From a virus: 64,000 nucleotides of DNA. The position numbers were made by a program, and so were the translations under genes. Where the stretch lies: the IMG/VR virus record IMGVR_UViG_3300029286_000024, positions 18,013 through 82,012 of that record, one strand, 5' to 3'. Positions 13,739 through 51,705 of this stretch are shown here, piece by piece. A model generated the notes under the pieces. The model was not told the DNA's origin. It was given only the letters and a program-made list of their open reading frames with translations, and did no database searches. Position 1 is the first letter of the stretch. Every line of letters starts with the position of its first letter.

Positions 13739-13966
13739 TCAAGGTTTATCTTCTCTAGGTTTATCGGCATAAGGGGAAATGTCAATGATGATTTTACCGT
13801 TAGTACAAACTAAGTGAGCAAAGTAATCGCCTTGTTTAGTATATCGGGGCAAGGTTACAATATGAAAATCAGGACGCCGTTTAACAAACCAATGAGATGC
13901 AGACCAGCAGCCCATTCTACGCTTTTTCGATTGCCATTCTCTTAAAACTCTGTCAATAGTTTTCAT
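13739..13966 (-). CDS. Leaderless small protein, possible Cys-His-Asp papain-like fold
   Basis: ATG 6 nt after -10; GC…AH…IIDI pattern. Confidence 0.6.
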   Translation of the reverse strand: MKTIDRVLREWQSKKRRMGCWSASHWFVKRRPDFHIVTLPRYTKQGDYFAHLVCTNGKIIIDISPYADKPREDKP

Positions 13967-13984
13967 GCGTATACCTTATCATAA

Positions 13985-14194
13985 TCAGTGGGTAATGTCA
14001 AGAGGTAAACTTTGCATTGTCCATTCGTTAGGCAAAGGGGTTCCTCCACCAACCCATTTATCATAGTTCATATCCTTGATGAAACTGTTAGCTTGTTCTT
14101 TGTTAAAACGAACAGGGATAGCATGATGAAAAGCAACTTTTTCCTTTGTTGTTTCATTGACATAGAAAACGCCATACTCTATGTTAGTTTTCAT
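13985..14194 (-). CDS. Leaderless hypothetical protein
   Basis: ATG directly after promoter module. Confidence 0.65.
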   Translation of the reverse strand: MKTNIEYGVFYVNETTKEKVAFHHAIPVRFNKEQANSFIKDMNYDKWVGGGTPLPNEWTMQSLPLDITH

Positions 14195-14254
14195 GCGAGC
14201 AGCCTATCACAATCAGTGGGTAATGTCAAGGTAATGTTTCAAAAACATTCCCTG

Positions 14255-14602
14255 TCAAGGTCTTTTCAGGAACATATAACAAAATTCATTAGGGAAATCA
14301 CTCCAACGAATAACTTTGAAGCCCATTCTCTTTAGCATTCTCTTCATGACAAAACCATTATGCCCATTGCCGTTATAGAGAAGGATCAAGAGACTTCTCC
14401 GTGTTTGCTGAAGGAATTGAGTCAGGACTTGTTTAGCTATTCCCTTCCCTCTTAATTTCTCATTAACCCAAATGTAGGAGAGATAATGGTAAGAGGGGAC
14501 ATGGAATTTTGAAGGGGAAGGAAGCGGGTCAAAAGTTTCGTAACTTCTATCCTTAATGATTGGCTCGTATTCGATATAGCCGCCATAGAATTCTACTTTC
14601 AT
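14255..14602 (-). CDS. GNAT-family acetyltransferase
   Basis: IWVNEKLRGKGIA acetyl-CoA motif A; KRMGF tail. Confidence 0.7.
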   Translation of the reverse strand: MKVEFYGGYIEYEPIIKDRSYETFDPLPSPSKFHVPSYHYLSYIWVNEKLRGKGIAKQVLTQFLQQTRRSLLILLYNGNGHNGFVMKRMLKRMGFKVIRWSDFPNEFCYMFLKRP

Positions 14603-14639
14603 GCGTATAGCGTATCATTCAGTGGGAAGAAAGTCAAGG

Positions 14640-14843
14640 CTAAACTACGCAAAGGTCTTTAGGGTTGACAGAGCCTTGAATGGTAGGATTTACTGCCCAT
14701 GCTATTTCGGGAGAGGCACAACCTAATCTTGCTGCAACTCCATAGACATCGGAATAAATTTCAAACTCTTCGTAGTTGTCATAAACTTCATGGAGTTTTG
14801 CTTGCCATCCTTTGATTCCGCTTTTGGTAGTAACTATTTTCAT
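14640..14843 (-). CDS. Leaderless hypothetical protein
   Basis: ATG after promoter module. Confidence 0.65.
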   Translation of the reverse strand: MKIVTTKSGIKGWQAKLHEVYDNYEEFEIYSDVYGVAARLGCASPEIAWAVNPTIQGSVNPKDLCVV

Positions 14844-14874
14844 GCGCACATCATATCATTCAGTGGGAAGAAAG

Positions 14875-15120
14875 TCAAGCTATTTCGTCTAGGAGAATAG
14901 CGGGATTTAGAATCGTCATTTGCTCAAAGGGAATGGTATGAGCATCGCCTTGAGGAACATCAGGCAAAGCAATTAACCCTCTCTCCTGCGCCTGTAAAAC
15001 AACTTCCCGATGGAGCATATAAGTGGCAGCAATCGAGAGTGGTTCATGCCTTCGGATACGCCTAAGATACTCTATGAGTTCTGAATCGTTATAATGCCAA
15101 GTTGATCTCCACATATTCAT
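14875..15120 (-). CDS. Leaderless hypothetical protein
   Basis: Start reassigned to MNMWRS; stop inside next -35. Confidence 0.6.
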   Translation of the reverse strand: MNMWRSTWHYNDSELIEYLRRIRRHEPLSIAATYMLHREVVLQAQERGLIALPDVPQGDAHTIPFEQMTILNPAILLDEIA

Positions 15121-15152
15121 AAGGGGCATACTAACAGAAGCAGGAAAGAATG

Positions 15153-15620
15153 TCAAGCAGGAAGAGAGAAGTCTTTTGTTATATTTCCTGTAGAGCAATC
15201 GTTGAAAGTTGGAATGAAATCTTGTTTTGCCAACTTGACGAAACGGTTTCTTGCTTTACCTTTGAGCAGGACATAGCATCCTTTGCCTGTTTGAAACGGG
15301 TCTTTAGGGTCAAAGGTTTCATCGAAGAAAGGAAAGCCACAATCAGCCCACCCGCTTCCCCGTAGGTAGACATACTTAGTTCCCATGTATTCTAGTTCAT
15401 CAGCGCAATAGCAATCGTGGGCTGTTTGAAGGTCAACTAGAAGTTCTCCGAAAGGGGTATCTTTAGGGATGTCAACGGTAGGGGCTTCACCAAGCATTTT
15501 GAAATTAGGGAGCCATTTAATATGTTCCCCTTCCCATGTTAAGAGTTGTCGGGGGTAATCTCCTTTTCGGGGGTCTTTATTGGGGACAAAAGGGAAATGG
15601 CCTATCTCATTATTTTTCAT
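15153..15620 (-). CDS. Leaderless hypothetical protein
   Basis: 155 aa; stop inside next -35. Confidence 0.7.
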   Translation of the reverse strand: MKNNEIGHFPFVPNKDPRKGDYPRQLLTWEGEHIKWLPNFKMLGEAPTVDIPKDTPFGELLVDLQTAHDCYCADELEYMGTKYVYLRGSGWADCGFPFFDETFDPKDPFQTGKGCYVLLKGKARNRFVKLAKQDFIPTFNDCSTGNITKDFSLPA

Positions 15621-15869
15621 GTGGCAATACTAACAGAAGATGGGATGGGTGTCAAGTATTATCTGAAATGATTTTGATTCCTCCACCGCCCATACCTACA
15701 GCAAAAATCCATGATCATTTTTTCTCCAAGTTTTTGCGGATTTTTGCTAATTCAGCGTCTATTTCGATAAAGAGAGTAGTCTTATCCATTTTCACGCCAG
15801 AATAAAAGTCGCAGAGCGTTAGGGCAAGACGGTCATCTTGTGTTTCCCTAACGCCCCGCTATGGAGGTG

Positions 15870-16157
15870 CTACTTAACCAAGGCGATCTTTTCCTCAATC
15901 TCCTTCGTCATGGCGTTCTGTTCGAGATTGCGGCAGTTATACCCAAAACTATACTCATGAACCTTGAGAGCTTCGGTAATGCGGAAGAAATGGTGTTGCC
16001 ACTCGAAGTTGACAACCTTTCCCTTTCCTTCGGCGGGAATATAGATACCCCGACAATGCGTAAAGAAACCCGTTACAGGGGCTTGCGGTAACGCCTTGCA
16101 GAGAATGTTGACCAACTGCTTACCAACCGATTGACCGTTCTTCATGATCTTTGCCAT
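15870..16157 (-). CDS. Hypothetical cassette protein
   Basis: AAGGAGG RBS. Confidence 0.7.
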   Translation of the reverse strand: MAKIMKNGQSVGKQLVNILCKALPQAPVTGFFTHCRGIYIPAEGKGKVVNFEWQHHFFRITEALKVHEYSFGYNCRNLEQNAMTKEIEEKIALVK

Positions 16158-16210
16158 GTTCTTCCTCCTTATTGTTTATGCGTAGAGCTTAACAGAAAAT
16201 GCGGATAATG

Positions 16211-16429
16211 TCAACAACAATCCCACCACATTTCTTCTTCAACATTCCTCTTAAAGTTGGCGATAGGCTCTTTCAAGGCATCAACCAACCCACGCAGGAT
16301 GCTAATGACTTCTTCTTCTCCTGCAGAATGTCCACGTTCATAAGCCATATAGGAAAGAGCCGATCTAAACTCTTCGGGGACATTGGCAAGAATTTCTTTG
16401 TATTGCTTTTTAACTTCTTCATCGGTCAT
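16211..16429 (-). CDS. Hypothetical cassette protein
   Basis: Start reassigned to MTDEEVK. Confidence 0.65.
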   Translation of the reverse strand: MTDEEVKKQYKEILANVPEEFRSALSYMAYERGHSAGEEEVISILRGLVDALKEPIANFKRNVEEEMWWDCC

Positions 16430-16621
16430 ATCTTCCCCATTGTTTGAGAAGAGCTTAACAGAAATTGGTGGTAATGTCAAGCCTTTTGTCCAAGATTTTT
16501 CAAGGCAAGAGCGGCAATCTTGGCATTGATTTTGCGCCACCATTCGCCATTAACCCATGTTCCTCTTTCAACAGCATCTTTCAAGGGTTGCGTTGACATG
16601 GTAGGACATTTACGAGAGTGA

Positions 16622-17914
16622 GCGGGAAAGCCCACGAAGCGAGTCTTCGAGCGTCTTTAGTCGTGGGATGAAAGCGAACAAGTAAAATATATTTAGAAAA
16701 AAGAAGGAATTATTCTAAAAATTTTGTATAATATAGGTATGAAAGCAATTAAAGTAAAAATATATCCTAAGAAATGGCAAAAGGAGTTAATAGAAAAACA
16801 CTTTGGTTGCTGTAGACTTATCTATAATTATGGATTAGAAAGAAAAACAAAGACATATCAAGAATCTAAAAAATCAATTGGGATTTATACTATTCAAAAA
16901 GAAATACCCAAAATGTATGAAGAAAAACCGTGGCTTAAAGAAGTTAATTCTCAAGCAATACAACAATCATTAAAAGACTTAGATTCTGCTTTCTCTCATT
17001 TTTTTAAAGCAAATAATTCTTTTCCTAAATTCAAATCGAAGAAAAATCCTAAGCAATCTTTTAGAGTCCCTCAGCATTTTGAAGTTAGTAAAGATAAGAA
17101 GCATATTAAAATACCTAAACTAAAGTGGATAAGATTCAAAGATAAATTCAATATTCCCAAAGATGTTGAATTTAGAAATATTACAATATCAAGAAGTGGA
17201 AATGAATACTTTGCTTCAATTTGTTATGATGATAAAAAACAAATTCCAAGTTTAGCTAAAATAACTGAATCTAAAACAGTAGGAATTGATTTAGGAACAA
17301 AAGTATTAGCAACATTATCAGATAATACAGTTATAGAAAACCCAAGACACTTTAAAAAATACGAAGATAAGTTAGCATTAGAACAACAAAAATTATCTAA
17401 GAAAACAAACAGAGAAACTAAATCATATCAGAAACAGAAAAATAAGGTCAATAAAATACATAAAAAGATAAGTAATACGAGAAAAGATTTTCTTCATAAA
17501 TTAACTACAAATCTAGTTGAGAACAAAGACTGGACTAGTTATGCTATTGAAGATTTAGCAGTGAAAGATATGCTTCAAAATAATTCAACCAGTATGTCAA
17601 GAACAATAGGTGATACTGGTTGGAGAATGCTTAGAAGTATGATGGAATACAAGTGCAATGAAAAAGGTAAGAATCTTTTGGTTATAGGAAGATTTGAGCC
17701 TTCTTCTAAACTCTGTTATTGCGGTGTAAAAAATAATGAGTTAGAACTAAAAGACAGGAAGTGGACTTGTAAAAATTGTGGTCTAACTCATAATAGAGAT
17801 GAGTTAGCTGCTAATAACATTAAGAATTTTGCTTTAATAAAGAGTCTGGGCAAAGACTTTAGCGAGCGTAAGCGAGCTTAGAACCCCACGATCTTTAGTC
17901 GTGGGAGTATGTCA
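16622..17914 (+). mobile_element. IS200/IS605-family (IS1341-like) tnpB-only element
   Basis: Subterminal hairpins cccacga…tttagtcgtggg at both ends; no tnpA. Confidence 0.85.
16739..17881 (+). CDS. tnpB: RNA-guided endonuclease TnpB
   Basis: HTH_OrfB N-terminus (HFGCCRLIYN), RuvC GIDLG / IEDL / NRDELAANNI, Zn finger CYCG…CKNCG. Confidence 0.92.
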   Translation: MKAIKVKIYPKKWQKELIEKHFGCCRLIYNYGLERKTKTYQESKKSIGIYTIQKEIPKMYEEKPWLKEVNSQAIQQSLKDLDSAFSHFFKANNSFPKFKSKKNPKQSFRVPQHFEVSKDKKHIKIPKLKWIRFKDKFNIPKDVEFRNITISRSGNEYFASICYDDKKQIPSLAKITESKTVGIDLGTKVLATLSDNTVIENPRHFKKYEDKLALEQQKLSKKTNRETKSYQKQKNKVNKIHKKISNTRKDFLHKLTTNLVENKDWTSYAIEDLAVKDMLQNNSTSMSRTIGDTGWRMLRSMMEYKCNEKGKNLLVIGRFEPSSKLCYCGVKNNELELKDRKWTCKNCGLTHNRDELAANNIKNFALIKSLGKDFSERKRA

Positions 17915-17974
17915 GACCAACGCTTTTGAGCTATTCTTTTCATAAGGGAAGATTACCCTAAGAGAGCAAGAATG

Positions 17975-18331
17975 TCAAGCTTTCTTTTTGAGGTCAATTC
18001 CAAGGGTGAGCAAAGTATCTTGGATAATGACAGCCTGATCGCCTCTCAAACTCTTCCAATCGAATCGAGAGAGTCTTTCTATTGCGTTATTTTCTTTAAT
18101 GCGTTGGAGGTCTACAGGAGTAGCAACTTGGATACGTTGTTTTGACCATGTATCGCTTCCACGCTGAGACCCGTTAATATCAAAAGAGGATTCGCCAACA
18201 TAAATAGTTCCGCCTCTTCCATCGGTAATTCGGGTAATGCGAGTAAGACTTTCGGGCCGATAGGAGTTCCCGTTATCATAAACGAGCATCCCAACTTTCC
18301 AATTACCAAGTTCTTGAAGTTCTTTAGCCAT
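17975..18331 (-). CDS. Hypothetical cassette protein
   Basis: GGAGG RBS; stop in -35. Confidence 0.75.
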   Translation of the reverse strand: MAKELQELGNWKVGMLVYDNGNSYRPESLTRITRITDGRGGTIYVGESSFDINGSQRGSDTWSKQRIQVATPVDLQRIKENNAIERLSRFDWKSLRGDQAVIIQDTLLTLGIDLKKKA

Positions 18332-18595
18332 GACTTTCCTCCATCGTTAAGAAGAGATTAACAGAAAGGGGTGAGAATGTCAAGGTTAATCTTCAACGCA
18401 AGAGCCATCGCCGTTATGAGTAATCCAATGGCATCCGCATTTAGGACAGAAATGGCTTTCCTTGGCAGGTTTCTTGATTGACTTAGCAGGCTTCTTTTTG
18501 TTTGGTTTCTTCATTTCCACTCCAGATTTTTCAGGGGAGGGGGATAAACCTCTTTGCTAAAATTTTCCCCCTCCCCACCCTCTCGCCTGCTAAGA

Positions 18596-18982
18596 TTAGT
18601 GCTCAGAAGGTAGGATGATGCAGTATTGACCATCTCCCATCGGTTCAACCCACAACTTCATTTCGGGCAACGGGAAACCTGTGTTTTCGATTTCCTGTTT
18701 AATGGCAACATCCCCGCTATCCCGTTCGCAAATAACCGTAGCGGAGTGGTCAGGATGAACCGTGAGCGTCCAGAACTGAATATCTCGGAGCTTCTTATCT
18801 TTCAGGGCTTTGGGTTGATGCGAACCGATAACGTCCAAGAGCCAATAACATTCTGCGTTATCAGCCAACCACTTGACTCCATCGGTCAGGAGCATTCTAG
18901 GGAACAGGGGTGAAAAACGATACCAGTTTTCTGTCCCGTAGAAGTTTCGCAATCCCTCATTCATTTCCGCTGCTGTTTTCAT
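18596..18982 (-). CDS. DUF6876-like phage/plasmid protein
   Basis: FYGTENWYR…LTDGVKWLA…YWLLDVI…ILPSEH pattern, recalled from memory. Confidence 0.6.
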   Translation of the reverse strand: MKTAAEMNEGLRNFYGTENWYRFSPLFPRMLLTDGVKWLADNAECYWLLDVIGSHQPKALKDKKLRDIQFWTLTVHPDHSATVICERDSGDVAIKQEIENTGFPLPEMKLWVEPMGDGQYCIILPSEH

Positions 18983-19047
18983 ACTGTTTTCCTCCATTGT
19001 TTATGCGAAGAGCTTAACAGAAAATGGTGGTAATGTCAAGGAATAAC

Positions 19048-19251
19048 TTATATTCGCATGAGCCAAAAGAAGACAGCCCAACCTATTGACGGATGAATGA
19101 TTTGAACAACGGGAATGTTAGCGTCAAGATTTTTCATGCCCCTCAGAATGAAGGTCGCAAGCCTGTTGATATAGGCAAACGTCCAAAAGATAGCCCATCC
19201 CAAAGTTATGACTTGAAAAAGTGGAAGCGATAACAGTTGTATATTATTCAT
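19048..19251 (-). CDS. Small membrane protein
   Basis: Two hydrophobic segments; AAGGAG RBS. Confidence 0.65.
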   Translation of the reverse strand: MNNIQLLSLPLFQVITLGWAIFWTFAYINRLATFILRGMKNLDANIPVVQIIHPSIGWAVFFWLMRI

Positions 19252-19297
19252 ATTCTCCTTTATTTTGAAACAAGACTATCACAAATCGTTAGTAATG

Positions 19298-19492
19298 TCA
19301 AGCAGGAAGATAGGGATTAAATGGCCTTGGAATTATCTTATGCCATTCCTTATGAGGTTTCTCTTCCGTCCCCCAACAGAAAGCCCTGAGAGGAACATCA
19401 TTGAGCCATAAGGTTTTGATAGCTCCGCAACGGGGACAGGGACCAACTGCTTTCTTCATTGCCATTACTGAAATCTTTTTTTCTTTGGGCAT
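19298..19492 (-). CDS. Small Cys-containing protein
   Basis: CPRCG; stop in -35. Confidence 0.6.
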   Translation of the reverse strand: MPKEKKISVMAMKKAVGPCPRCGAIKTLWLNDVPLRAFCWGTEEKPHKEWHKIIPRPFNPYLPA

Positions 19493-19692
19493 ATCAATCC
19501 TTTATTTCTTTTGAGTTTCTTGAAGGTTATAGTAGTTTTTTCGATGACGCCAATACCTCTTCGTTCCAATTCGCTTTCGCAGAGGATTTTCCCGATAACA
19601 TCATTGGAGCCGAAGCAATTCATTTTGATGGCGTGGTCATGTTCCCTAAAACGATACTTCAGTTGTTTGATGGTAAGGTCTTTCATTTTCAT
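19465..19692 (-). CDS. Leaderless hypothetical protein
   Basis: Follows promoter at about 19722. Confidence 0.6.
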   Translation of the reverse strand: MKMKDLTIKQLKYRFREHDHAIKMNCFGSNDVIGKILCESELERRGIGVIEKTTITFKKLKRNKGLICPKKKRFQ

Positions 19693-20194
19693 AGATATAC
19701 CCTATCACATTCGGTGGGAGAAGTCAAGCATTACTTCAAACAATATTTTTGGGGTTGGGTGCACTCCTGTCCATCCCATACCCTTCTCTGTATTCTACCT
19801 CTTTTTTCTATATGGTAAAAGTTTTTGAGGTAGCCGCACTTCTGACAGTCTTGTTTTTCGCAAGCTGAAATTGTTTTGGGAAATGGTTTCTTGTTTTTCA
19901 TACGCATACCTTATCACATTCGGTGGGTAAAGTCAAGAACTTTTATGGAAAAGATTAACAGGTTCCCATAAGAAATCCCATAACTCTACAAGCCATGACT
20001 TAAATCTTTTCATTACTTCCTGTTTTGTCTGCGAGCCTTTTTCTGATTGCGCTGTTGTCTTGAGGCCGGCGAATTTCCACGCTTGGGTATTTGGAAACTT
20101 CGTCGTTCCGTATATCCAAGAGAATCCATCCATCCTAACGTCATCGCTTGTGCAAGTATACTATTCATTATCATACTCCTTTAGTTGACAAACA

Positions 20195-20380
20195 TTAGTC
20201 CTGTAAAAGAACTTCAATCGCTTCATCCTGAATCTGGGTTCGCACCATTACTCTATTTTTCTTTTCTCCATGTTGCCTGCTGTATACAACCCATTCTTCA
20301 TTGTCCCATACCATCCAACGTTTTCCATTGACAAGACGAATATCGTTTTTCCTCATTGCTGAATCAATGTTCATAATCAT
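20195..20380 (-). CDS. Hypothetical protein
   Basis: AAGGAG RBS. Confidence 0.6.
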   Translation of the reverse strand: MIMNIDSAMRKNDIRLVNGKRWMVWDNEEWVVYSRQHGEKKNRVMVRTQIQDEAIEVLLQD

Positions 20381-21002
20381 ACTCCTTTAGTTGATTGACA
20401 AACTCCTGATATTCCTCTTCGATTAAACTATCCCACGTTGGCAGAGTTGAAACGCATCGGTCAAAGAGGGGATTGATGATTGCCGCCGTTTTCTGCCACC
20501 ATTCAGGGAACAGAACCAATTTCTTTTCGCAACGCCCCGCATAGATAGCCGAAGAAATAGTAACAGGAGACAGGATATAACGTCTCAATTCAAGATTAGC
20601 ATAGGCGTAAGTATGATCGCATTTGTCACGGACTTTTTTGCTTTGAATGCTATCCTTGAAGGGAAGCATATTATAGCGTCTCATGCAAAGTTGTTTACGA
20701 GGCAAGAAAGTATTCAAGAAAGCCTCTAGGGACTTTTCGCCATCGGGTAGAACGTCAAGCAATGGCCCTTGAACATTCTTAGGGTCTTGATGATCGTAGT
20801 AACAAGAACCATATAGATTTTTGCGAGAATTGAAATGATTACTTGCCCATTTTTCAAGAGAGGGGTAGCGTTGTTCATAGGGGGCATAATCGGAAAAACC
20901 AAGAGCAGGGGTGCCACCTACTATGATCCAAAGACGGATTTGCTCTCCGTCAACCTCAAAAGTTGTTTCGCAAGCAGAAGTTTTTAGTTGTTTGATGTCC
21001 AT
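20364..21002 (-). CDS. Hypothetical protein
   Basis: Start reassigned to MDIKQ after AGGAG. Confidence 0.7.
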   Translation of the reverse strand: MDIKQLKTSACETTFEVDGEQIRLWIIVGGTPALGFSDYAPYEQRYPSLEKWASNHFNSRKNLYGSCYYDHQDPKNVQGPLLDVLPDGEKSLEAFLNTFLPRKQLCMRRYNMLPFKDSIQSKKVRDKCDHTYAYANLELRRYILSPVTISSAIYAGRCEKKLVLFPEWWQKTAAIINPLFDRCVSTLPTWDSLIEEEYQEFVNQLKEYDYEH

Positions 21003-21049
21003 GTTTTCTCCTATTGTTAAAGAGAGATTACCACAAAGAGGGAAGAATG

Positions 21050-21232
21050 TCAAAACAATTTTAGTATCATTAGGATATTGATGGCACTCCCTATGGTCAT
21101 GATTGCCATACAGGTTTGCGTAAATTGGTTAGTAAGTTCGGGTCTGAAAATTCCTATCGCAAAAGCAGTTCCGCAACACAAAAAAGCGATAGACGGACAA
21201 ATGATTACCAAGAGTTTTTTTGCTTTGCTCAT
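21050..21232 (-). CDS. Small two-TM membrane protein
   Basis: Hydrophobic; stop in -35. Confidence 0.65.
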   Translation of the reverse strand: MSKAKKLLVIICPSIAFLCCGTAFAIGIFRPELTNQFTQTCMAIMTIGSAINILMILKLF

Positions 21233-21278
21233 TTTTCTCCTATTGTTTAAGAGAGGGTATCACAAAAGGGAAAGAATG

Positions 21279-21467
21279 TCAAGGCTTATCTTCAACGATC
21301 CGAAGTTCTTTGATGTCAGGCAACCAATACCAATCGTTACCAATATGGACATTTTTGTTTGCGACTTCCAATACGACTCCTCTTTTCTTGGTATCAATAA
21401 ATGCGCTTCTCGCATCTTCCCATTCAACAAGCTTCCCAATGAGTTTTCTAGCGTCAGGTGTTTTCAT
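21279..21467 (-). CDS. Small SH3/Sm-like hypothetical protein
   Basis: LIGKLVEW…RGVVLEV pattern; stop in -35. Confidence 0.55.
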   Translation of the reverse strand: MKTPDARKLIGKLVEWEDARSAFIDTKKRGVVLEVANKNVHIGNDWYWLPDIKELRIVEDKP

Positions 21468-21520
21468 TCTTCCCCTTATTGTTGAAAAGAGATTACCACA
21501 AAAGGGAAAGAATGTCAAGG

Positions 21521-21709: not shown

Positions 21710-21763
21710 GTTACTCCTTATTGATTTTTGATACGAAGAGATTACCACAAATTGTTGGGAATG

Positions 21764-41933: not shown

Positions 41934-41941
41934 GTTTCCTC

Positions 41942-43359: not shown

Positions 43360-43410
43360 GTTTTTTCTCCTTGTTAATATTGTTGACCCTATCACAATCC
43401 AAAAGAAATG

Positions 43411-43853: not shown

Positions 43854-43884
43854 ATACGCATCATATCATTACGTGGAGGAAATG

Positions 43885-44127
43885 TCAAGGCTTTAATTTA
43901 GGAAACTCAGGCAATTCAAATTTCGCAAAATGAGCCTCTTCTAATTCTTTCTCGTACATAAATTGACCATCAGCAGCATGAATAAGACCATTAGCGCACT
44001 TGTAAACCCTAACAATCATCCATTCAGGCTTGTTCTTAGTAATACTGGTCATCTTCCCATAACGATAACCATAGAACCAATAGTTACCTACTTTGTTCGG
44101 GAATTTAGTTGTCCATTTCACTTTCAT
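43885..44127 (-). CDS. Leaderless hypothetical protein
   Basis: Stop in -35. Confidence 0.65.
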   Translation of the reverse strand: MKVKWTTKFPNKVGNYWFYGYRYGKMTSITKNKPEWMIVRVYKCANGLIHAADGQFMYEKELEEAHFAKFELPEFPKLKP

Positions 44128-44219
44128 ATACGCATCCTATCATTATGTATGAGAAATGTCAAGAATAAAAAAGATATTTGTTTGAAGGAAATTCTCAAGA
44201 AATATAGAAATAACTATAT

Positions 44220-44381
44220 ATGAAAACACATCAAAAAAATAAACGAGACGGGTTCTATATGGCGATTATTCCAGAAGAACGAAAGATGATTGATAGGCTA
44301 CAGGAGCAGGCAATTAATGTTTCCCAAGCATTCAAGCTGTTCCTTAAACAAATGCTTGAAAGGATTGAAAAGCATGAATAA
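44220..44381 (+). CDS. 53-aa ribbon-helix-helix-like protein upstream of GIY-YIG
   Basis: MKTHQKNKRDGFYMAIIPEERKMIDRLQEQAINVSQAFKLFLKQML; similar to 53347 and 54894 ORFs. Confidence 0.6.
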   Translation: MKTHQKNKRDGFYMAIIPEERKMIDRLQEQAINVSQAFKLFLKQMLERIEKHE

Positions 44382-45204
44382 ATGTGGAATTTACTGTATA
44401 AGAAATTTGACCAATGATAAGAGGTATATCGGTAGTACAAGTAATATGGAAAGGCGATGGAGTCAACATAGAAGACTCCTTAAAAGAAATTTACATGAAA
44501 ATCCTATTCTCCAATTTTCTTACAATAAACACGGAGAAAATAATTTTATTTATGAACTCCTAGAATTATGTAGCGAATCAAATCTCATAGAAATCGAAGA
44601 TAAATATATTAGACTTTTTGACACCATGAATAGAAATCATGGCTACAATTTTGATCTTCCTAGCCGACCTAACCAAAGCCCAGAAGCAAACGAGAAAAGA
44701 AGGCTTGCTATGACTGGAAGAAAAATGAGCGAAAAACAAAGAATTCAAATGAGTATAGACAGAACAGGGAAAAAACATACTCCTGAACATAAAGCCGCAA
44801 CAAAACTAGCTATACAAAACAGAACCCAAGAAGAGAAAGAGGCAATCTATAAAAAAATATCAGAAGCCAATAAGGGTAAAATAATGAGCCAAGAAGCTAG
44901 ACGGAAAATAGGGTTAGCTCATTTGGGAACAAAATATTCAGAAGAGAGCAAAACAAAAATGTCTGAAGCTCATAAGGGGAGTAAGAATCCCAACTATGGT
45001 AGAACAGGAGAACATCATTGGCATTATGGGAAACATTTTTCTAGTGAAACAAAAGAAAAAATGCGTTTGGCACATAGCGGTAGTAACAATCACAACTATG
45101 GCAAACCCATGTCCGAAGAGCAAAAACAAAAAATAAGCGAAACGAAGAAGAGACAATATCAAGAGAAATTACTTCTAAAATTTAATGTCAATGTCGAAGT
45201 ATAA
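44374..45204 (+). CDS. GIY-YIG homing endonuclease with NUMOD3 repeats
   Basis: CGIYCIRN…YIGS…RW..H, GYN, repeated S.E.K.KMS.AH.G. Confidence 0.9.
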   Translation: MNKCGIYCIRNLTNDKRYIGSTSNMERRWSQHRRLLKRNLHENPILQFSYNKHGENNFIYELLELCSESNLIEIEDKYIRLFDTMNRNHGYNFDLPSRPNQSPEANEKRRLAMTGRKMSEKQRIQMSIDRTGKKHTPEHKAATKLAIQNRTQEEKEAIYKKISEANKGKIMSQEARRKIGLAHLGTKYSEESKTKMSEAHKGSKNPNYGRTGEHHWHYGKHFSSETKEKMRLAHSGSNNHNYGKPMSEEQKQKISETKKRQYQEKLLLKFNVNVEV

Positions 45205-45910
45205 CCATTTTGCTTCCCCTTACTTGACAACGATTACATACCCTACAGTCCCCTTTGCAAACCCCGTATCCTTTTGGCCTATCCTTCTTATCCTCAATCA
45301 TCAGGAAAATGTTAGGAATACCCTCTTTCTGAAAACCCGAACCAGAAACAATTAAGTGGCGAACATTTTTGAAATTCAAATCTTTCCTAGCAGAATAACA
45401 GTAGGTTTTTACATTGAAACGATTTAACAACCGTGCAACTTTTTCAACCTTATCTAAGTCGTTCTGATTATGAAAATCTCCGCTTTCATTGAACCGCAAA
45501 GAAGTCCATGGATTGTTTCTTGTTGAATTTATCAAAAGAAATTGCGTAACAAATTCTTCTGCCGTTATGGTTTCCCAATACTTTTTTTGAGCATCCCGAT
45601 AAGGTTGAACAAAAGGACGAGAAGAATTTTCAGAACGTTTCGCATAACAAACGTGCGTCCCCGCTTTCTTCCCCTTTTTCAAAATAGCCTGACAAAATCC
45701 CAACTTAAATGAAGGACAGGAATGAGCACTAGAAAGGTTATAGATAGCTGTTGAAGTAGGAAGTTTATAGTTGCCAGAACCCAGTAAAGAATAGAGCTTG
45801 CAAAAATCTCTAATCTTTCCCCCTTCGATCATTACATTGGCAAAACGTTTAAGGGGAACGTTAGCCGCTATTCTAGACAAAGGGATTTTTTCTACTTGAA
45901 TTTCCTGCAT
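45188..45910 (-). CDS. Gp88-like (radical-SAM-like Fe-S) phage protein
   Basis: CP…C…CYA, RFNESGDF, CKGDCRVCNRC. Confidence 0.65.
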   Translation of the reverse strand: MQEIQVEKIPLSRIAANVPLKRFANVMIEGGKIRDFCKLYSLLGSGNYKLPTSTAIYNLSSAHSCPSFKLGFCQAILKKGKKAGTHVCYAKRSENSSRPFVQPYRDAQKKYWETITAEEFVTQFLLINSTRNNPWTSLRFNESGDFHNQNDLDKVEKVARLLNRFNVKTYCYSARKDLNFKNVRHLIVSGSGFQKEGIPNIFLMIEDKKDRPKGYGVCKGDCRVCNRCQVRGSKMVILRH

Positions 45911-46153
45911 TTATATCTCCGTTGTTGTGCGTAAGGTATCAGAAGGTTTAGGAAATGTCAAGGTTATTTTACTTGAGGAAGCCCGAAAAGAAATCCCGGC
46001 CCGTTTCCCTCTTCATCACGGGAAACTTCTAACTTAGTCCCATCATCAAGAATAATCTGCGGAAAGCCATCTTCACTTACAGCAACCTTTGTAATCTTCC
46101 TACCGACTAATGGCTTGAGATACTTTTTCAACCAATCATTCATAACTACTCCT

Positions 46154-46378
46154 TTATTTTAGCGGAATGTTTATTTCTCTTAGACGCTTGTTTTTGCGAT
46201 CAAGATATTTCCTGTACCTAATGACACCCATGTACTTAATGACCGCTTCAGGAGTAGCAAAACGGTAAGCATCATCTCGACAATCCCCGAAATAATTAGG
46301 AGGATGATAACAGCCACAACAACCACATTCTTCAATATCATCAGGCGTTAAGGATTTCTTTTTGGATTTCTTTTTCAT
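46154..46378 (-). CDS. Small Cys-rich protein
   Basis: ECGCCGCYH…GDCRDD. Confidence 0.65.
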   Translation of the reverse strand: MKKKSKKKSLTPDDIEECGCCGCYHPPNYFGDCRDDAYRFATPEAVIKYMGVIRYRKYLDRKNKRLREINIPLK

Positions 46379-46570
46379 GTTGATAAGAGCCTATCATAAA
46401 GGGGAAGAAATGTCAAGGTCTATATAGAACCTACCTTGTTGCGTATGTTTTGTGAAACAACAAGGTAAAGGAAAAGATCCTTCCTCAAAGAATTAGGGTC
46501 TAGCCGCTTAGCCTTTCCTAACATCCCTATTGTAATGGAATTGAAAAAAAAATCAAGGATTATTGTATTT

Positions 46571-46640
46571 GCGCAGAGGGTAGACCTTGCTAACGTTCCT
46601 TGGGTGAGAACATAAGCAATTACCCAACTACCCCCTGCGC
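46571..46640 (-). ncRNA. Candidate pseudoknotted RNA element
   Basis: 13-bp closing stem, internal 12-bp hairpin, loop ACCCAA complementary to TTGGGT. Confidence 0.45.
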
Positions 46641-46650
46641 CTTTTTACAA

Positions 46651-46863
46651 TCAATAATCGTAAGCAGGAGCATAATCAAACTGCTCTGCCCGTTCCCGAC
46701 GCTTCTCCCGCCGTTCCTTCTCCATCAATTCGGCCTTACGGAGACTAGCCCAATAAGACTTCCGCTTGTTCCGAAGTCCCTTGCCTTTCAACCCCGCCAT
46801 CCTGACTGTACCCTCACCACCCATGTAAACCGTTCTCGTTTTACCACCCATATTGTTACCCAA
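46651..46863 (-). CDS. Small basic protein
   Basis: Arg/Lys-rich; start probably 46851. Confidence 0.55.
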   Translation of the reverse strand: MGNNMGGKTRTVYMGGEGTVRMAGLKGKGLRNKRKSYWASLRKAELMEKERREKRRERAEQFDYAPAYDY

Positions 46864-46891
46864 CCTTTCTTAATGTTTCTTGTATCTTACC

Positions 46892-47161
46892 CTAAACGTT
46901 CCCTAATGTCAACAAAAATCGTTCTTCTAAAAGTTTTTTCTGAGCATCATTCAAATCAGGCTCTATCTCTTTCTCATACCATTCTTTCAACTGATCGTCT
47001 ATCCATTCCCTTTCTTCAACGGATAGAGTCATTAAGGTATTCTTAACCAGTAGAAACTTAGCTGACCATAACGCAAACAAATGGGCTTCACGCAGTTCTT
47101 GCCCCTTGTTCTTTAGCGTCAGAATCAAATCTTTAAGGTCTGCTAATGTTTTTTCTTTCAT
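46892..47161 (-). CDS. Hypothetical protein
   Basis: TAATG coupling. Confidence 0.65.
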   Translation of the reverse strand: MKEKTLADLKDLILTLKNKGQELREAHLFALWSAKFLLVKNTLMTLSVEEREWIDDQLKEWYEKEIEPDLNDAQKKLLEERFLLTLGNV

Positions 47162-47391
47162 TATCCCTTGGAGAAAGCTTCTAGAACCACTTTCTCGCTA
47201 ACCTTTTTCCACTCCTGAATCTGTCCGCAATCTAAACAAATATCCATTTCTACATAATCTTCGTCCCCACCAAAAGGGAATGTAAATGGAACATACCCGC
47301 TGTAATCTAGGCTGTTATAGCTCATAGAAAACATGTCTGAACACTTGGCCTGTAAATGAAGAATCCTATCCGAACCACATTTGCATTTCAT
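47161..47391 (-). CDS. Small zinc-binding protein
   Basis: CKCGS…CLDCG. Confidence 0.7.
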   Translation of the reverse strand: MKCKCGSDRILHLQAKCSDMFSMSYNSLDYSGYVPFTFPFGGDEDYVEMDICLDCGQIQEWKKVSEKVVLEAFSKG

Positions 47392-47468
47392 TTCTTCTCC
47401 TATGTTTCCTATAGCTTAGCACATCCTTGAATAAATGTCAAGGGAAATGTTCATGACATTTTTCCTAG

Positions 47469-47702
47469 TCAATTTAATTTTGCAACTTCTTTTCCGCAAT
47501 GGGGACACCTCATCGTTTGAACCTTCCTCTTCTTTGCAATTTCTGCCGCTTTACTTAAATCGTATTGGGCATTACAATGTTTACAAGAAAGATAGAATGA
47601 TCCACTAACCTTTACTTCCTGTTTTGCGTACATCCAAACTCCCTTCTTCCTCCTGTTGAATAAGTTGAACAGCTTCCCGCCAATCAAACTTATCGTTTTC
47701 AT
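47469..47702 (-). CDS. Zinc-ribbon protein
   Basis: CKHC…CPHCG. Confidence 0.65.
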   Translation of the reverse strand: MKTISLIGGKLFNLFNRRKKGVWMYAKQEVKVSGSFYLSCKHCNAQYDLSKAAEIAKKRKVQTMRCPHCGKEVAKLN

Positions 47703-47789
47703 CTTCCTCTATGACCCTACGAGGCTGAGACTTCTTTCTACCATTTCCTTCATCTAGGAAATGCCGCTTTGAACTACTGGTATTACTCA

Positions 47790-48629
47790 CTACTTCTTTC
47801 CTTTCCCTTTCTTATGCCTACCCTTTGTAGGACAACATGTTTGACAACGATACTTCTTAACATACTCTTCAGGCGTAATCTTCTTCCTGCCTGCCGCTGC
47901 TATGATTGCCGAAGGAGATGATTTTACCTGCTTACCACATTTACAAACAAGCTCCTTGGGCAAGTGAGCATTATCAGGGTTTGACTTCCGCCCCTTAGTA
48001 GGATGACACTTCTGACATTGATACCCCTTAACGTATTTCTCCAAGGTAATTCCTAGTTTCTCGATCCTTTTGTTTAAGATAGAAGGCGAGACAGAAATCT
48101 TGGCTCCACATTTACAAACCAATTCTGTTGGAGCTTGAACTACGCCTGAGCCTCTTGGTCGGCCCTTAGTAGGATGACATTCTTGACATTGGTAAACCTT
48201 GAGAAAATCATCAATGGTGAACAGTATGCCTTTCTTCTCCGCAATCTTTTCTACCCGCTTAACCAAGGCTCCCGGAGGAATAGCTGATTTATTTCCGCAA
48301 GTAATACAAACCAATTCCCTAGGAACATTGGCATATTTATTTTTTCTCGCTCCTCTTGCCTTTTCCAGACGATTGTTGACCACTTCTTTCTCTTCAACCG
48401 AAAGATTTTCAATTTCTTTCCTCACCTCTTCGGAAAGATTATCCCAGAGCTTATGCCGCTTGAGAATATCTATGTCGATGTCTTGAACCCGTAGCAATCC
48501 CCTACAGCTAGACATTTCTCCGTTCTCATGCCAGTGTTTTCTTACCACCATCAACTTAGGATTTTTGTCCATCGCAATAAATTCAAACTTGGAATTCAAA
48601 GCGGGAAACAACTCTTCATCGGTAATCAT
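47790..48629 (-). CDS. Basic protein with three tandem zinc-binding repeats
   Basis: 3x ELVC..CG…Y.CQ.C.PTKGR. Confidence 0.75.
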   Translation of the reverse strand: MITDEELFPALNSKFEFIAMDKNPKLMVVRKHWHENGEMSSCRGLLRVQDIDIDILKRHKLWDNLSEEVRKEIENLSVEEKEVVNNRLEKARGARKNKYANVPRELVCITCGNKSAIPPGALVKRVEKIAEKKGILFTIDDFLKVYQCQECHPTKGRPRGSGVVQAPTELVCKCGAKISVSPSILNKRIEKLGITLEKYVKGYQCQKCHPTKGRKSNPDNAHLPKELVCKCGKQVKSSPSAIIAAAGRKKITPEEYVKKYRCQTCCPTKGRHKKGKGKK

Positions 48630-48686
48630 TGGATCTCCTATTGTTTGAAATCATCCTATCATAAATAAAAATATTTGTCAAGGTAT

Positions 48687-48905
48687 TTACGCATGTCCCT
48701 TGAAATATTTTCTGGCCCAATGATCTTCTGGAATCGCAACAGGCATCTTGTCTTTGTCTATCTTCTTAGCAAAAGCAGCAAATCTTTTCGCTAGCTTCTC
48801 ATCAGGAAATTCATAAACGTAAGGCTTACCACAAAAACCACCCGCTATATTCCCGAACTCTACCCTTGTCCCATTTCTCTCAACCCATCTTTTCATGGTA
48901 ATCAT
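48687..48905 (-). CDS. Hypothetical protein
   Basis: AAGGA RBS. Confidence 0.6.
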   Translation of the reverse strand: MITMKRWVERNGTRVEFGNIAGGFCGKPYVYEFPDEKLAKRFAAFAKKIDKDKMPVAIPEDHWARKYFKGHA

Positions 48906-48918
48906 GGTGATCCTTTAA

Positions 48919-48952
48919 CAAAAAGGGGGAGTTTATCAGTCCCTCCCCCTTT
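48919..48952 (-). terminator. Intrinsic terminator
   Basis: aaaaagggggag…ctcccccttt. Confidence 0.65.
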
Positions 48953-48973
48953 CTCTTTTCATCCCATGTTCGA

Positions 48974-49405
48974 CTACGCCGTAACAACAGCCGCCGTAAC
49001 AGGAGTCTCGATCTTCGGTGCCTTCGGCGTCTTCACCCGCTTGGCAGTCTTCGCTTTCTTCGTAACCGCCTTGACCGACTTCGTAACGGGCCGAATATGC
49101 CGAGCCAACTCCTTAGCCCGAAGCGAGAACTTGAACTTCCGCTCCTGCCCTGCAACCTTGTTCAAGGGCTGCATGAAATACTTATGCCCCTGAGACGAGA
49201 AGTTGCCCCGACAGTCACAACCCTTCCGAGTAGTGGCCTTACGGGGAGAAAGGAAAACCGAAGCCGTTGCCGTAGCCGCTCCCAGCTTCTTCCCCTTCTC
49301 CATGATGAACTTGACAATACCACTACGGGTCACGATCCCCTTCATGGTCTGCCGAACGTACTTCTCCACCGCCTGATACATACCACGATTGTAAACATAC
49401 TTCAT
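48974..49405 (-). CDS. Basic protein with histone-H1-like Lys/Ala/Pro tail
   Basis: KAVTKKAKTAKRVKTPKAPK; GC-richer codons. Confidence 0.7.
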   Translation of the reverse strand: MKYVYNRGMYQAVEKYVRQTMKGIVTRSGIVKFIMEKGKKLGAATATASVFLSPRKATTRKGCDCRGNFSSQGHKYFMQPLNKVAGQERKFKFSLRAKELARHIRPVTKSVKAVTKKAKTAKRVKTPKAPKIETPVTAAVVTA

Positions 49406-49635
49406 ACTCTTACCCTACCTTTCTTTACTGCGTTTTTGTTTCTTACTTCTTGATACCTAAACATCCGTTCAAGTACCATTACCATCTTTACGCACCATCA
49501 TAACAGAACGTGTAAGAAAGTCAAGAACTATTTTCAACTTTCTTCACCTACCAACTTACCATCCCTATCACCTTCCCTCAGTCTTATGCGTGTCATCATA
49601 GCACATTCTGAAAAAAAGTCAAGAACAATTTTGAC

Positions 49636-49896
49636 TTAAAGAAACTTTTTCAGAACCTCATATTCTGACTTCGTAACCTCTGTCAATCCACTTACCCAAC
49701 AAGCCAAACATCCGTCATGGAAATAATAAGTTCCTGCTTCATCTCCACTCGATCTCTCATCGCAAGTCCCATAGAAATTACGGACATAGGCATCCGCATC
49801 ATATATTTTGCTTCTTGTTCGTTGAAGAGACATACTATCAAATTCGTATTCTCCCACTCGAATCTTTATGGTCAGTAAAAAATATCTCATGATCAT
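49636..49896 (-). CDS. Hypothetical protein
   Basis: ORF in operon. Confidence 0.65.
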   Translation of the reverse strand: MIMRYFLLTIKIRVGEYEFDSMSLQRTRSKIYDADAYVRNFYGTCDERSSGDEAGTYYFHDGCLACWVSGLTEVTKSEYEVLKKFL

Positions 49897-49898
49897 CC

Positions 49899-50378
49899 TT
49901 AAATTTTGATAACCTTTTTCGCCTCATTACATCCAATGTATCTTGCTAGAGCGGATTGAACAGCCCGAATGTTTTTGGCCGCTTCAACACTCTCAACGGC
50001 TCTCCATGCTGTATTCATTTCGTCCCGCAAATAAAGAATGTCGTCAGAAGAAAAAAGACTGACATAACTATCCGCTTCCTCCTTGGCCTTTTCGAGAATG
50101 GCTTCCGTTGCGTCATCCTTAGCTTCTTCCAAAAGCTCTTGTTCATTTGGGGATTTATCAACTGCGGGAATTACCTTAACGTCTTTCTTATCCACCATTA
50201 AACGAACAATGGAATTGGCATCTACCAAATATCGCCCGTTACTCAGAGTGGCTACATATTGATAGGCAGGAAGAATTGAAACTCCAAACTTGGCAGAAGT
50301 TATAATGCGCTTGGGCTGAACTATTACTTGCTTGTCTGTCTTTTTCATTACATTACCCCATTTCTTTATTGACCACAT
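49899..50378 (-). CDS. Hypothetical protein
   Basis: Start probably 50348; N-domain resembles a 54-aa ORF at about 50599-50763. Confidence 0.65.
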   Translation of the reverse strand: MWSIKKWGNVMKKTDKQVIVQPKRIITSAKFGVSILPAYQYVATLSNGRYLVDANSIVRLMVDKKDVKVIPAVDKSPNEQELLEEAKDDATEAILEKAKEEADSYVSLFSSDDILYLRDEMNTAWRAVESVEAAKNIRAVQSALARYIGCNEAKKVIKI

Positions 50379-50771
50379 TTGCTCTCATTGTTAAAAACCA
50401 TCCTACCACAACTCCAAGGAAATGTCAATTATTATTTTCAAAAACTATTAATGATCTGCTCAACCTTTATCATCCACTCTTCCTCTGTACTCTCCCGAAC
50501 ATCATCATCAACGCCTTTCCATTCCTGTATCAGTTCAGAAGAAAGATACTTAACGATTTTCTGAGCAATGGTTTCATTGGCCCTTGGTTTCTGTTCTTTC
50601 ATCCTACCACCTCTACATTATTTCCCCGTACCATCACAAAAAGAGTTTCGTCAATCGCTACCAAAAATCGCCCATTGGTTAGCCGCTCTGCTTCATATTG
50701 AGCATAAGGACTTAAGGCAACCCCAAATTTACAGTAAACCCAATGACGTACATGTATTTTCATTTTTCCCC

Positions 50772-51122
50772 TCATTCCAATACCTTAACCCACTCTGCCC
50801 AAAAATCTGTCAAATTAACAATCGGTTTTTCCCCTTCTTGAACATATTCCTTGGTTACAGCAAATTCTACGGTAGAAGGATCAATAGGCGTCTTATCAAC
50901 TTTATGCCCACTTAAACCGGGAGCTAATACCATGAAATCACCCCCAATATGAAGTTTCCCATAATAACGAGATTGATCTTCACATTCAACGGAAAGAGTA
51001 TCCCCAATAATCGCTTCCGCACTCCTAGCTATCCCCGTTATGACTTCCAACCGACCTGCTTTTACGCATTGCAATTTCATCTGTCTCCTATTGCTTGAAT
51101 AAGAAAATGTTTTCTTATTCAA
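50772..51122 (-). CDS. Hypothetical protein
   Basis: AGGAG RBS suggests a start at 51080. Confidence 0.65.
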   Translation of the reverse strand: MNKKTFSYSSNRRQMKLQCVKAGRLEVITGIARSAEAIIGDTLSVECEDQSRYYGKLHIGGDFMVLAPGLSGHKVDKTPIDPSTVEFAVTKEYVQEGEKPIVNLTDFWAEWVKVLE

Positions 51123-51159
51123 TTGTTGAAATGCATCCTACCACAACTCCAAGGAAATG

Positions 51160-51705
51160 TCAAGCAACTTTTAATCCCAATTCCTTAAGATGTCGCTCTG
51201 TCCTTTCCAATACGTAACAAGAAGTAAAATCAGGACTTAAACATATCCCAATCGCTATAACCTGCGAAAGCTCTTCCTCTGTTATAAATTTCTTCCTTTT
51301 TGAAACCTTCTCCCATCCACAAATACTATGAGGCTTTCGTACTAAAAATGGATTCAACTTGGCATACATATTACAATATCCCGATGAACTACTGTTGTCC
51401 GGCCCCTCAACACAACTAGAAGCAGGATAAACCCAAAGAAAATGTTTCCGATTCCTTTCCCTTATATGATTCCCCCACGTACCGCACTCTAAAGAAGGTA
51501 TATTAGGAACATTTTCGCATAAATCGGAATGCCAATCTATGTTCATCAGACAATCATAAGAAAAAGAATTCATATGCCGAAGTAATTCATGATGATCTTG
51601 TTTGATCAACATCGGCTTATGTAGGGCGATTAACCGTTTTAAGAAATATTCCGGATGTCTCCCTGTCTTCCAATAATCTAAATCTACCGAAAGATATATG
51701 CCCAT
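51160..51705 (-). CDS. UPF0489/arginase-like metallohydrolase
   Basis: LSVDLDYW, DHHE, NIDWHSD, CLSPDF. Confidence 0.65.
   Translation of the reverse strand: MGIYLSVDLDYWKTGRHPEYFLKRLIALHKPMLIKQDHHELLRHMNSFSYDCLMNIDWHSDLCENVPNIPSLECGTWGNHIRERNRKHFLWVYPASSCVEGPDNSSSSGYCNMYAKLNPFLVRKPHSICGWEKVSKRKKFITEEELSQVIAIGICLSPDFTSCYVLERTERHLKELGLKVA

Follow-up and report, generated by a model that had tools for sequence, protein, structure and literature searches.

Stop codons inside the -35 box of a repeated, predicted promoter in a small-gene array of an uncultivated lake-water phage

The DNA described here (the window) is a stretch of 64,000 nucleotides, bases 18013 to 82012 of a single 82,012-bp record (IMGVR_UViG_3300029286_000024), a linear virus record of an uncultivated lake-water phage with a CheckV completeness of approximately 43%. 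Lake-water metagenome runs contain the same DNA as the record. Positions are those of the window unless another sequence is named. Between approximately 9.5 and 51.8 kb the window carries an array of small genes, all on the minus strand, separated by copies of one predicted promoter. At many of these junctions, the stop codon of the upstream gene is the TGA inside the -35 box (TTGACA) of the promoter that follows. As a feature, the array (ORF, open reading frame) reads as follows:

9520..51795, minus strand: promoter array, about 64 to 70 copies of (C)TTGACA-N17-TGnTAnnnT, each before one to a few small ORFs

The heptamer CTTGACA occurs 64 times in the window versus 7.5 ± 2.9 times in shuffled sequences, none of which (0 of 100) reached 64; 53 of the 64 are minus-strand copies, and every one of these falls between 9520 and 51793. 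Across the entire 82,012-bp record, a stricter pattern combining the -35 and the extended -10 was found 58 times on the minus strand and twice on the plus strand. A matrix with a 17-nt spacer matched 66 minus-strand and 2 plus-strand sites. Since a generic promoter scan demands a TATAAT-like -10 (it gave 47 sites versus 46.3 in shuffles, not above chance), we relied on the repeat itself for the promoter calls. In a logo of the 66 matrix matches (17-nt spacer), conserved positions extend from about offset -9 to +50, with a weak A-rich stretch at -9 to -4, a C at -1 (58/66) and then TTGACATT, followed by a TG at the extended -10 position, TAnnnT and a C-A at offsets 34-35. In near-identical promoter pairs, identity ends 0 to 2 nt upstream of the -35 in 13 of 14 cases, indicating that the repeat begins at the -35 edge. 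One exact duplication of 50 nt (12733-12782 and 12969-13018) runs from 2 nt before the -35 through the ribosome-binding site, around an unrelated ORF.

Two forms of the unit can be distinguished. In 24 of the 64 matrix-scored copies, an ORF of 30 codons or more begins with an ATG at offsets 35-38, 6 to 9 nt after the -10, and the predicted mRNAs of these units should be leaderless, while the remaining copies carry a conserved leader that includes a GGAG-type ribosome-binding site. Units of the leaderless class have a CCCAC-N-GAAT core in the spacer, and their -10 is of the TA(A/G)GGT type (members at 13715, 14001, 14229, 19727, 19936, 25672, 25875, 28546, 38100 and others). The same spacer is found in relatives of the array (described below; L007 at 285, 648 and 2205; L010 at 1039 and 1700). 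Since it is kept where the proteins are only approximately 50% identical, it hints at a putative regulator site and not merely at recent copying, which suggests at least two regulatory promoter classes. Folding of -30 to +36 in the 64 copies revealed no stem-loop (mean z of 0.11), and no pair of columns stood out (best z of 3.2). Terminator-like sites were not in excess either (12 versus 16.7 ± 4.3 in shuffles).

For the phase analysis, we took, upstream of each of the 64 matrix-scored promoters, the phase with the longest open stretch ahead (5') of offset -12 and kept those open for at least 40 codons, as was the case for 53 of the 64. The stop of this frame fell on the TGA of TTGACA (offset +1) at 25 of the 53 junctions, and the others were found at -6 (8), -5 (7), -11 to -8 (6), -4 (1) and +9 to +20 (6); 22 stops in total lie between -11 and -4, and offsets -9 to -4 are A-rich. 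The TGA phase was used by 34 frames, versus 13 and 6 for the other two (binomial P = 4.4e-6), and the 31 frames that had not closed before the -35 edge were distributed 25/3/3 (P = 8.6e-8). A tabulation of this kind against chance had been proposed when the pattern was first noticed from the sequence (the original prediction), and the strong phase bias confirms that it is real and far from chance. At nine of the 25 junctions, the next ORF starts on an ATG at the predicted transcription start, and the inter-ORF gap is the promoter alone, 31 nt. The repeat therefore supplies the stop of the upstream gene at 25 of 53 junctions and also the next start at nine of them, as had been claimed. The stop-in--35 junctions are the following:

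14875..14880, minus strand: stop on the TGA of TTGACT, ORF ending at 14875; downstream ORF predicted leaderless
15153..15158, minus strand: stop in -35, ORF 15153-15620 (155 aa); downstream ORF predicted leaderless
16211..16216, minus strand: stop in -35, ORF 16211-16543 (110 aa); the tail of the L017 homologue is 5 residues shorter
16477..16482, minus strand: stop in -35, 3' part (16477-16635) of a gene that TnpB interrupts
17975..17980, minus strand: stop in -35, ORF 17975-18331 (118 aa), tail GIDLKKKA
19298..19303, minus strand: stop in -35, ORF 19298-19492
19933..19938, minus strand: stop in -35, ORF 19933-20133, newly added; downstream ORF predicted leaderless
21050..21055, minus strand: stop in -35, ORF 21050-21232
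21279..21284, minus strand: stop in -35, ORF 21279-21542
21764..21769, minus strand: stop in -35, ORF 21764-22087
22436..22441, minus strand: stop in -35, ORF 22436-22912 (158 aa)
22959..22964, minus strand: stop in -35, ORF 22959-23273
23502..23507, minus strand: stop in -35, ORF 23502-23660, newly added; downstream ORF predicted leaderless
24034..24039, minus strand: stop in -35 of a promoter with a 16-nt spacer, ORF 24034-24276
25872..25877, minus strand: stop in -35, ORF 25872-26252; downstream ORF predicted leaderless
27283..27288, minus strand: stop in -35, DNA methyltransferase ORF 27283-28026 (247 aa); downstream ORF predicted leaderless
31387..31392, minus strand: stop in -35, ORF 31387-31593; downstream ORF predicted leaderless
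33470..33475, minus strand: stop in -35, ORF 33470-33961
35699..35704, minus strand: stop in -35, ORF 35699-36013, newly added
36107..36112, minus strand: stop in -35, ORF ending at 36107
40783..40788, minus strand: stop in -35, ORF 40783-41013; downstream ORF predicted leaderless
41643..41648, minus strand: stop in -35, ORF 41643-41933
42734..42739, minus strand: stop in -35, ORF 42734-43135 (133 aa), ends one residue after the W-x-L of its family
43411..43416, minus strand: stop in -35, ORF 43411-43605
43885..43890, minus strand: stop in -35, ORF 43885-44127 (80 aa); downstream ORF predicted leaderless
51160..51165, minus strand: stop in -35, ORF 51160-51705 (181 aa)

The original prediction held that more than 25 ORFs end at the TGA inside TTGAC, and a minus-strand ORF end was verified at all 26 coordinates that it listed. 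At 23 of them the stop lies in a promoter copy (22 matrix-scored with a 17-nt spacer and 24034 with a 16-nt spacer). Two more, 13739 and 14255, are on an extra TTGACA copy 26 to 28 nt upstream of the real -35, and the last, 45188, has no -10. Cases beyond that list are 19933, 23502 and 35699, together with 47469 on an upstream extra copy. The expected last residue, Pro, Ala, Thr or Ser, was found in 20 of 24 cases, and the tails described for frames that read into the promoter (LDITH, LTLPPK and LDISST) are indeed present. The atypical junctions are as follows:

13712..13743, minus strand: extra TTGACA, 27 nt before the real -35 at 13715, in which ORF 13739-13966 stops
14226..14259, minus strand: extra TTGACA that is the stop of the GNAT-like ORF 14255-14602, real -35 at 14229
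47438..47473, minus strand: extra TTGACT, 30 nt before the -35 at 47441, in which ORF 47469-47702 stops
45188..45193, minus strand: TTGACA without a -10, stop of the GP88-like ORF 45188-45910, which overlaps the 3' end of the plus-strand GIY-YIG ORF 44290-45204 by 17 nt

The TTGACA at 45188 is probably not a promoter and was left out of the junction count. The second TTGAC(A/T) copies, found 26 to 30 nt upstream at three junctions and forming direct repeats of 8 to 9 nt (ccTTGACA) in two of them, could be partial promoter duplications. Of four junction hairpins folded, only one was stable, that between the two copies at 14226-14259 (-10.5 kcal/mol, z = -3.6); the inverted repeat at 13712-13743 is weak (z = -0.27), and the fold at 47438-47473 gave a z of -0.89. 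A tandem five-letter word was also seen in a relative, L014, whose orthologue of gene 17975 takes its TGA stop from a TTGAC directly next to the real TTGACA (1371-1380).

We also considered that TGA might be read as a sense codon in this phage, and rejected it: TGA ends 57 of the 127 array ORFs (greedy set), and homologous proteins end there. TAG ends 21 of the 127, in spite of a tRNA with a CUA anticodon in the array. Eight of the TAG-ended ORFs are close to a promoter, and in some of them the -35 TGA is in phase as a back-up stop.

The same 127 ORFs cover 84% of positions 11100 to 51800. Among the 62 junctions that have no promoter, 25 are overlaps and 12 have a gap of 0 to 15 nt. Nor is the tight packing limited to ORFs, as two tRNA genes end 8 and 12 nt before a -35:

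34011..34084, minus strand: tRNA-Lys(UUU), 3' end 8 nt upstream of the next -35 (34003)
38112..38187, minus strand: tRNA with anticodon CUA (amber suppressor type; ARAGORN label Pyl), 3' end 12 nt upstream of the next -35 (38100)

Coverage, the 37 of 62 tight promoter-free junctions and the tRNA ends together suggest that everything dispensable has been squeezed out of the array.

Relatives were collected through the protein encoded at 17975-18331, which gave seven homologues in a large protein collection and 16 metagenome loci. The promoter matrix matched in 14 of the 16 loci, 42 times in total and always on the strand of the gene, and both the leaderless and the leader-bearing forms were present. 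After de-duplication, the stop was in the -35 at 11 of 21 junctions, with phases 12/3/6 (P = 0.02). The trait is therefore shared by a family of uncultivated phages rather than peculiar to one record. As a control, we applied the same tabulation to 100,000 of the 164,018 bases of RB49, the phage in which promoter-early stem-loop (PeSL) cassettes were defined, with stops located in the AT-rich stretch upstream according to the available text of the report (PMC2839356). In our tabulation too, most RB49 stops lie in the AT-rich stretch from -11 to -3, and only 4 of 28 junctions have the stop in the -35, with phases 8/9/11 and no bias. The window differs from RB49 both in the stop (25/53 versus 4/28, Fisher P = 0.0036) and in the use of the TGA phase (34/53 versus 8/28, P = 0.0027). 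For one of these four RB49 junctions, that of gene 59 with the early promoter of gene 32, the GenBank annotation itself puts the upstream stop within the -35 signal (142003-142008; coding sequence 142005-142652). Stops in the -35 of RB49 are what chance gives, although the layout itself is not unheard of.

A central inference of the original prediction was that incoming DNA is joined directly to the -35 edge, and a comparison of C-termini with homologues had been proposed as a check. Homologues good enough for this comparison were available for four proteins. All four end 0 to 2 residues past the conserved core, which is intact in each, and their close homologues differ by 0 to 6 residues. These results do not indicate truncation by a join, while the other outcome foreseen, longer C-termini elsewhere, was found in many distant homologues. 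Homologues of the methyltransferase (27283-28026) align with it as far as the conserved SPKVEI block, 6 residues before its end; the four closest of them (50 to 69% identity) are 1 to 6 residues longer. Gene 17975 has a tail of 6 residues after the conserved GI versus 2 to 5 in most homologues. In six relatives, the next gene follows it directly, with no promoter, and the tails are equally short; the L014 gene stops at -4, and that of L013 extends 20 nt into the promoter sequence. Gene 42734 belongs to a larger family (623 members at E ≤ 0.001) and ends one residue past the invariant W-x-L, with 11 of 23 aligned homologues ending within 0 to 2 residues there. The most direct comparison is that of gene 43885 with its L013 orthologue, as the two proteins have identical length. 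In L013 a TAA of its own at -7 terminates the gene, four bases before TTGACT, while the window copy runs through a final CCT codon to the TGA of the -35. The protein ends alike in the two junction states, which differ by a local indel of approximately 8 nt rather than by a capture event. As a whole, the window proteins keep the conserved core and little else. For gene 22436, no homologue was found among the candidates searched in the large protein collection.

Gene order is not conserved among these loci. L009 carries homologues of 12565, 14640 and 17975 side by side, in an order opposite to that of the window; L017 has the order DUF6876, 16211, 17975; and the L013 homologues of 43885, 17975 and 11319 are packed into 2.7 kb versus 32 kb in the window. 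Gene 43885 is followed by a different promoter subtype and different genes in the window and in L013. Since order, neighbors and following promoters differ among relatives, cassette turnover at or near the units is real, as in PeSLs. Contigs from four lake or freshwater runs showed joints only at promoter copies, with 20 to 39 matching letters on the shorter side; they fit repeat-induced assembly-graph jumps and are not evidence of exchange. No bridged cassette indels were seen in the covered parts of these contigs.

The array genes are almost all orphans without known relatives. The recognizable ones are ArdC, a DNA methyltransferase, a GNAT-like protein, a HAD domain of RNA-repair proteins, a SprT-like protein and DUF6876. 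Among the 30 ORFs that end on a TTGAC TGA, 8 have a PHROG match at E ≤ 0.01 and 22 do not. Only three pairs of the 127 array ORFs are similar to each other, and the similarity is weak or partial. One real paralogue pair was found (29301/29817), both members of which end at the same aligned position. An ORF with no family match (47790-48629, 279 aa) contains, at 47818-48200, three repeats spaced by 171 nt with 71 to 83% identity over 41 nt. The N-terminus MKIYR(L/I) is common to several unrelated proteins (window 3282-8907; record L001 at 9511 and 17641; ORF list).

Outside the array, we found a thymidine kinase, an MT-A70 methylase, a metallophosphoesterase, a topoisomerase IB-like protein and a radical-SAM protein. 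The same list includes two TnpB (IS605 OrfB) genes and three GIY-YIG/NUMOD homing endonucleases, the first of these lying within the array on the opposite strand:

about 16640-17915, plus strand: TnpB (IS605 OrfB) element, ORF 16724-17881, inserted approximately nine codons into the predicted leaderless gene after promoter 17978
57988-59178: second TnpB
44290-45204, 53514-54317 and 55064-55747, plus strand: GIY-YIG/NUMOD homing-endonuclease ORFs, the first inside the array

The gene split by the first TnpB has its 3' part in ORF 16477-16635. Public contigs show several different flanks at 17878-17915, indicating that the TnpB element has other contexts. No structural genes were found in the 82-kb record, which is consistent with a fragment of a large phage, and no T4 core genes were detected among approximately 60 larger ORFs scanned with Pfam or PHROGs in this record, which is approximately 43% complete. 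Neither the phage collection nor the plasmid collection contained near-identical DNA. Searches of viral_contigs gave no relatives by three proteins or by alignment, and a scan of it with the typed promoter pattern gave no matches. The leading region of a conjugative plasmid was considered because of ArdC, SprT and DUF6876, and it was set aside because of the classification as a virus record, the thymidine kinase and the GIY-YIG homing endonucleases. We interpret the region as the presumably early, hyperplastic portion of a large phage known only from uncultivated material.

The junctions are probably explained by deletional compaction against a constrained promoter combined with selection against promoter-encoded tails, within a PeSL-like array of promoters and ORFan cassettes. 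In this account, the 64 to 70 predicted promoters of host type (sigma-70-like) would each drive one to a few tiny genes. The promoter would be constrained from the C at -1 through the transcription start, with the DNA upstream free to change, and small deletions would remove the spacer between a gene and the next promoter. A gene that lost its own stop in one of the three phases would run into the invariant TGA having added just one NCT codon (Ala, Pro, Ser or Thr), which would be harmless, while in the other two phases it would gain a tail encoded by the promoter (LDI... or LTL...). These tails would mostly be selected against, so that genes in such phases would retain a TAA or TAG of their own at -5 or -6. 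Junctions would accumulate in the TGA phase as an end state. Compaction and selection against tails, taken together, would explain the phase bias, the intact cores, the short tails and the L013/window pair, and no capture mechanism is required.

Several points weigh against this explanation. Compaction alone predicts no phase bias, and the harm done by the tails is an assumption added to it. No homologue is more than 3 residues shorter than the window protein (among hits whose alignment reaches the end of the query), while 51 of 61 methyltransferase homologues and 68 of 143 homologues of gene 42734 are more than 10 residues longer. The window proteins are therefore at the short end of their families, as would also be expected from cut-and-join. 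Genes 16211 and 23502 carry 5 to 8 extra, unrelated residues past the part aligned with their homologue, and these tails may be new. Finally, the good C-terminus tests are limited to four genes, as most array genes have no homologues.

An alternative that we regard as possible, if unlikely, is promoter-bounded cassette exchange of the PeSL type, in which co-infecting relatives would recombine within the repeated promoters and the stop in the promoter would be a by-product of, or an aid to, the shuffling. The TGA in the -35 and the frequent TAA at -6 would then act as built-in stops that end any upstream cassette safely. The differing gene order in L009, L017 and L013, the different promoter subtypes and genes that gene 43885 precedes in the window and in L013, and the edge of promoter-copy identity 0 to 2 nt upstream of the -35 all speak for such exchange, and recombination at PeSLs is documented for RB49/phi1 in the available text of PMC2839356. 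However, homologous exchange inside the promoter keeps the upstream DNA and predicts neither stop loss nor phase bias, RB49 with its documented shuffling shows no bias, the contig joints described above can be attributed to assembly, and no stem-loop or recombinase was found in the record. Exchange is compatible with compaction as far as the evolution of the array is concerned, but it gives the junction a role in gene gain. A further reading, in which the unit is a self-contained cassette border that evolved to end any upstream frame (TGA, and often TAA at -6) and to start a leaderless gene, appears doubtful to us. If true, genes could be dropped in or swapped at the C/TTGAC edge without a stop, spacer, ribosome-binding site or terminator of their own, and the unit would be a minimal 36-nt joint for gene capture and expression across a family of lake phages.

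The capture proper envisaged by the original prediction, site-specific or driven by microhomology, would join DNA at the 5' edge of TTGACA, with captured ORFs losing their stops and borrowing the TGA. Part of that reading stands, namely the supply of stop and start by the repeat and the sharp repeat boundary at the -35 edge. The shortness of the window proteins within their families would fit it as well, and the second TTGAC copies 26 to 30 nt upstream at three junctions might be scars of a staggered join. The joining of incoming DNA as a capture junction did not hold, though, against the intact cores in all four testable genes and the orthologous 43885 junction, where a local indel left protein length unchanged. 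Moreover, matches to tyrosine and serine recombinases (PF00589, PF00239) were absent from the 82-kb record (approximately 43% complete), and no attC-like inverted repeat was found around the junctions, which showed no paired columns and no excess of folding. An unselected in-frame join also predicts one third of the frames in the TGA phase and not 25 of 31. We therefore rate capture as improbable. Translational coupling, finally, would have a ribosome that stops at the -35 TGA on a read-through RNA re-initiate approximately 32 nt downstream and so rescue the leaderless ORFs. The idea of re-initiation over approximately 30 nt comes from work on 70S scanning. The lack of a terminator excess makes read-through transcripts likely, and the distance from stop to next start is short and fixed. 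The expected enrichment of leaderless downstream genes is missing, however (9/25 at stop-in--35 junctions versus 24/64 overall), and coupling seems to us a very remote explanation.

Among known systems, PeSLs come closest to the array; they are regulatory cassettes described in hyperplastic regions of the T4-type phages RB49/phi1, T4/PST and KVP40/nt-1 (Arbiol et al. 2010, PMC2839356; Comeau et al. 2014, PMC4122927). As far as those texts describe them, PeSLs share with the window the many near-consensus sigma-70-type promoters (TTGACA-N17 in RB49) between small ORFans on one strand, an upstream stop at the 5' end of the unit, a Shine-Dalgarno sequence and start codon at its 3' end, and gene content and order that vary among relatives. 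The gene 59/gene 32 junction of RB49 even has its stop in the -35. However, the window units have no stem-loop or terminator part, their -10 is TGnTAnnnT and not TATAAT, 24 of 64 are predicted to be leaderless, stops in the -35 are frequent and biased in phase while in RB49 they are neither, and no T4 core genes were seen in the 82-kb fragment. As the defining stem-loop is absent, we do not file the array as PeSL, although it is alike in being a repeated, predicted early promoter that frames ORFans.

Integron cassette arrays, with intI, attI/attC and a single Pc promoter, are another possible comparison. Both are long one-directional rows of small, mostly unrelated genes split by a repeated element, and they share the idea of a capture junction. 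In the window, though, every unit has its own -35 and -10, the repeat lacks inverted repeats and the incomplete record contains no integrase. Large lytic phages have host-takeover or early clusters with many strong host-type promoters, such as the terminal-repeat module of SPO1 and the early regions of T5 and T4. These are similar to the array in their dense small early genes, each with or sharing a strong promoter for the host RNA polymerase. We know of no systematic -35 TGA stops or large leaderless subset in clusters of this type. A described systematic stop-in--35 layout was not found in open-access literature text either. The new points are the quantified phase bias and the minimal 31-nt inter-ORF joint.

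The array provides a natural example of extreme gene packing, with nine junctions at which the predicted promoter is the sole non-coding DNA, and its phase bias, seen in relatives but not in RB49, would be a measurable signature of selection at promoter-gene junctions. For annotation, it implies that gene callers and promoter finders should expect stops within -35 boxes and leaderless starts in phage early regions. Should the junction also turn out to serve in recombination, the PeSL concept would gain a minimal form free of stem-loops. The content of the array (ArdC, methyltransferases, SprT-like, HAD) is likely related to anti-defence and host takeover, and arrays of this kind, with approximately a hundred unknown, putatively early genes per genome under their own strong predicted promoters, would be a rich place to look for such functions.

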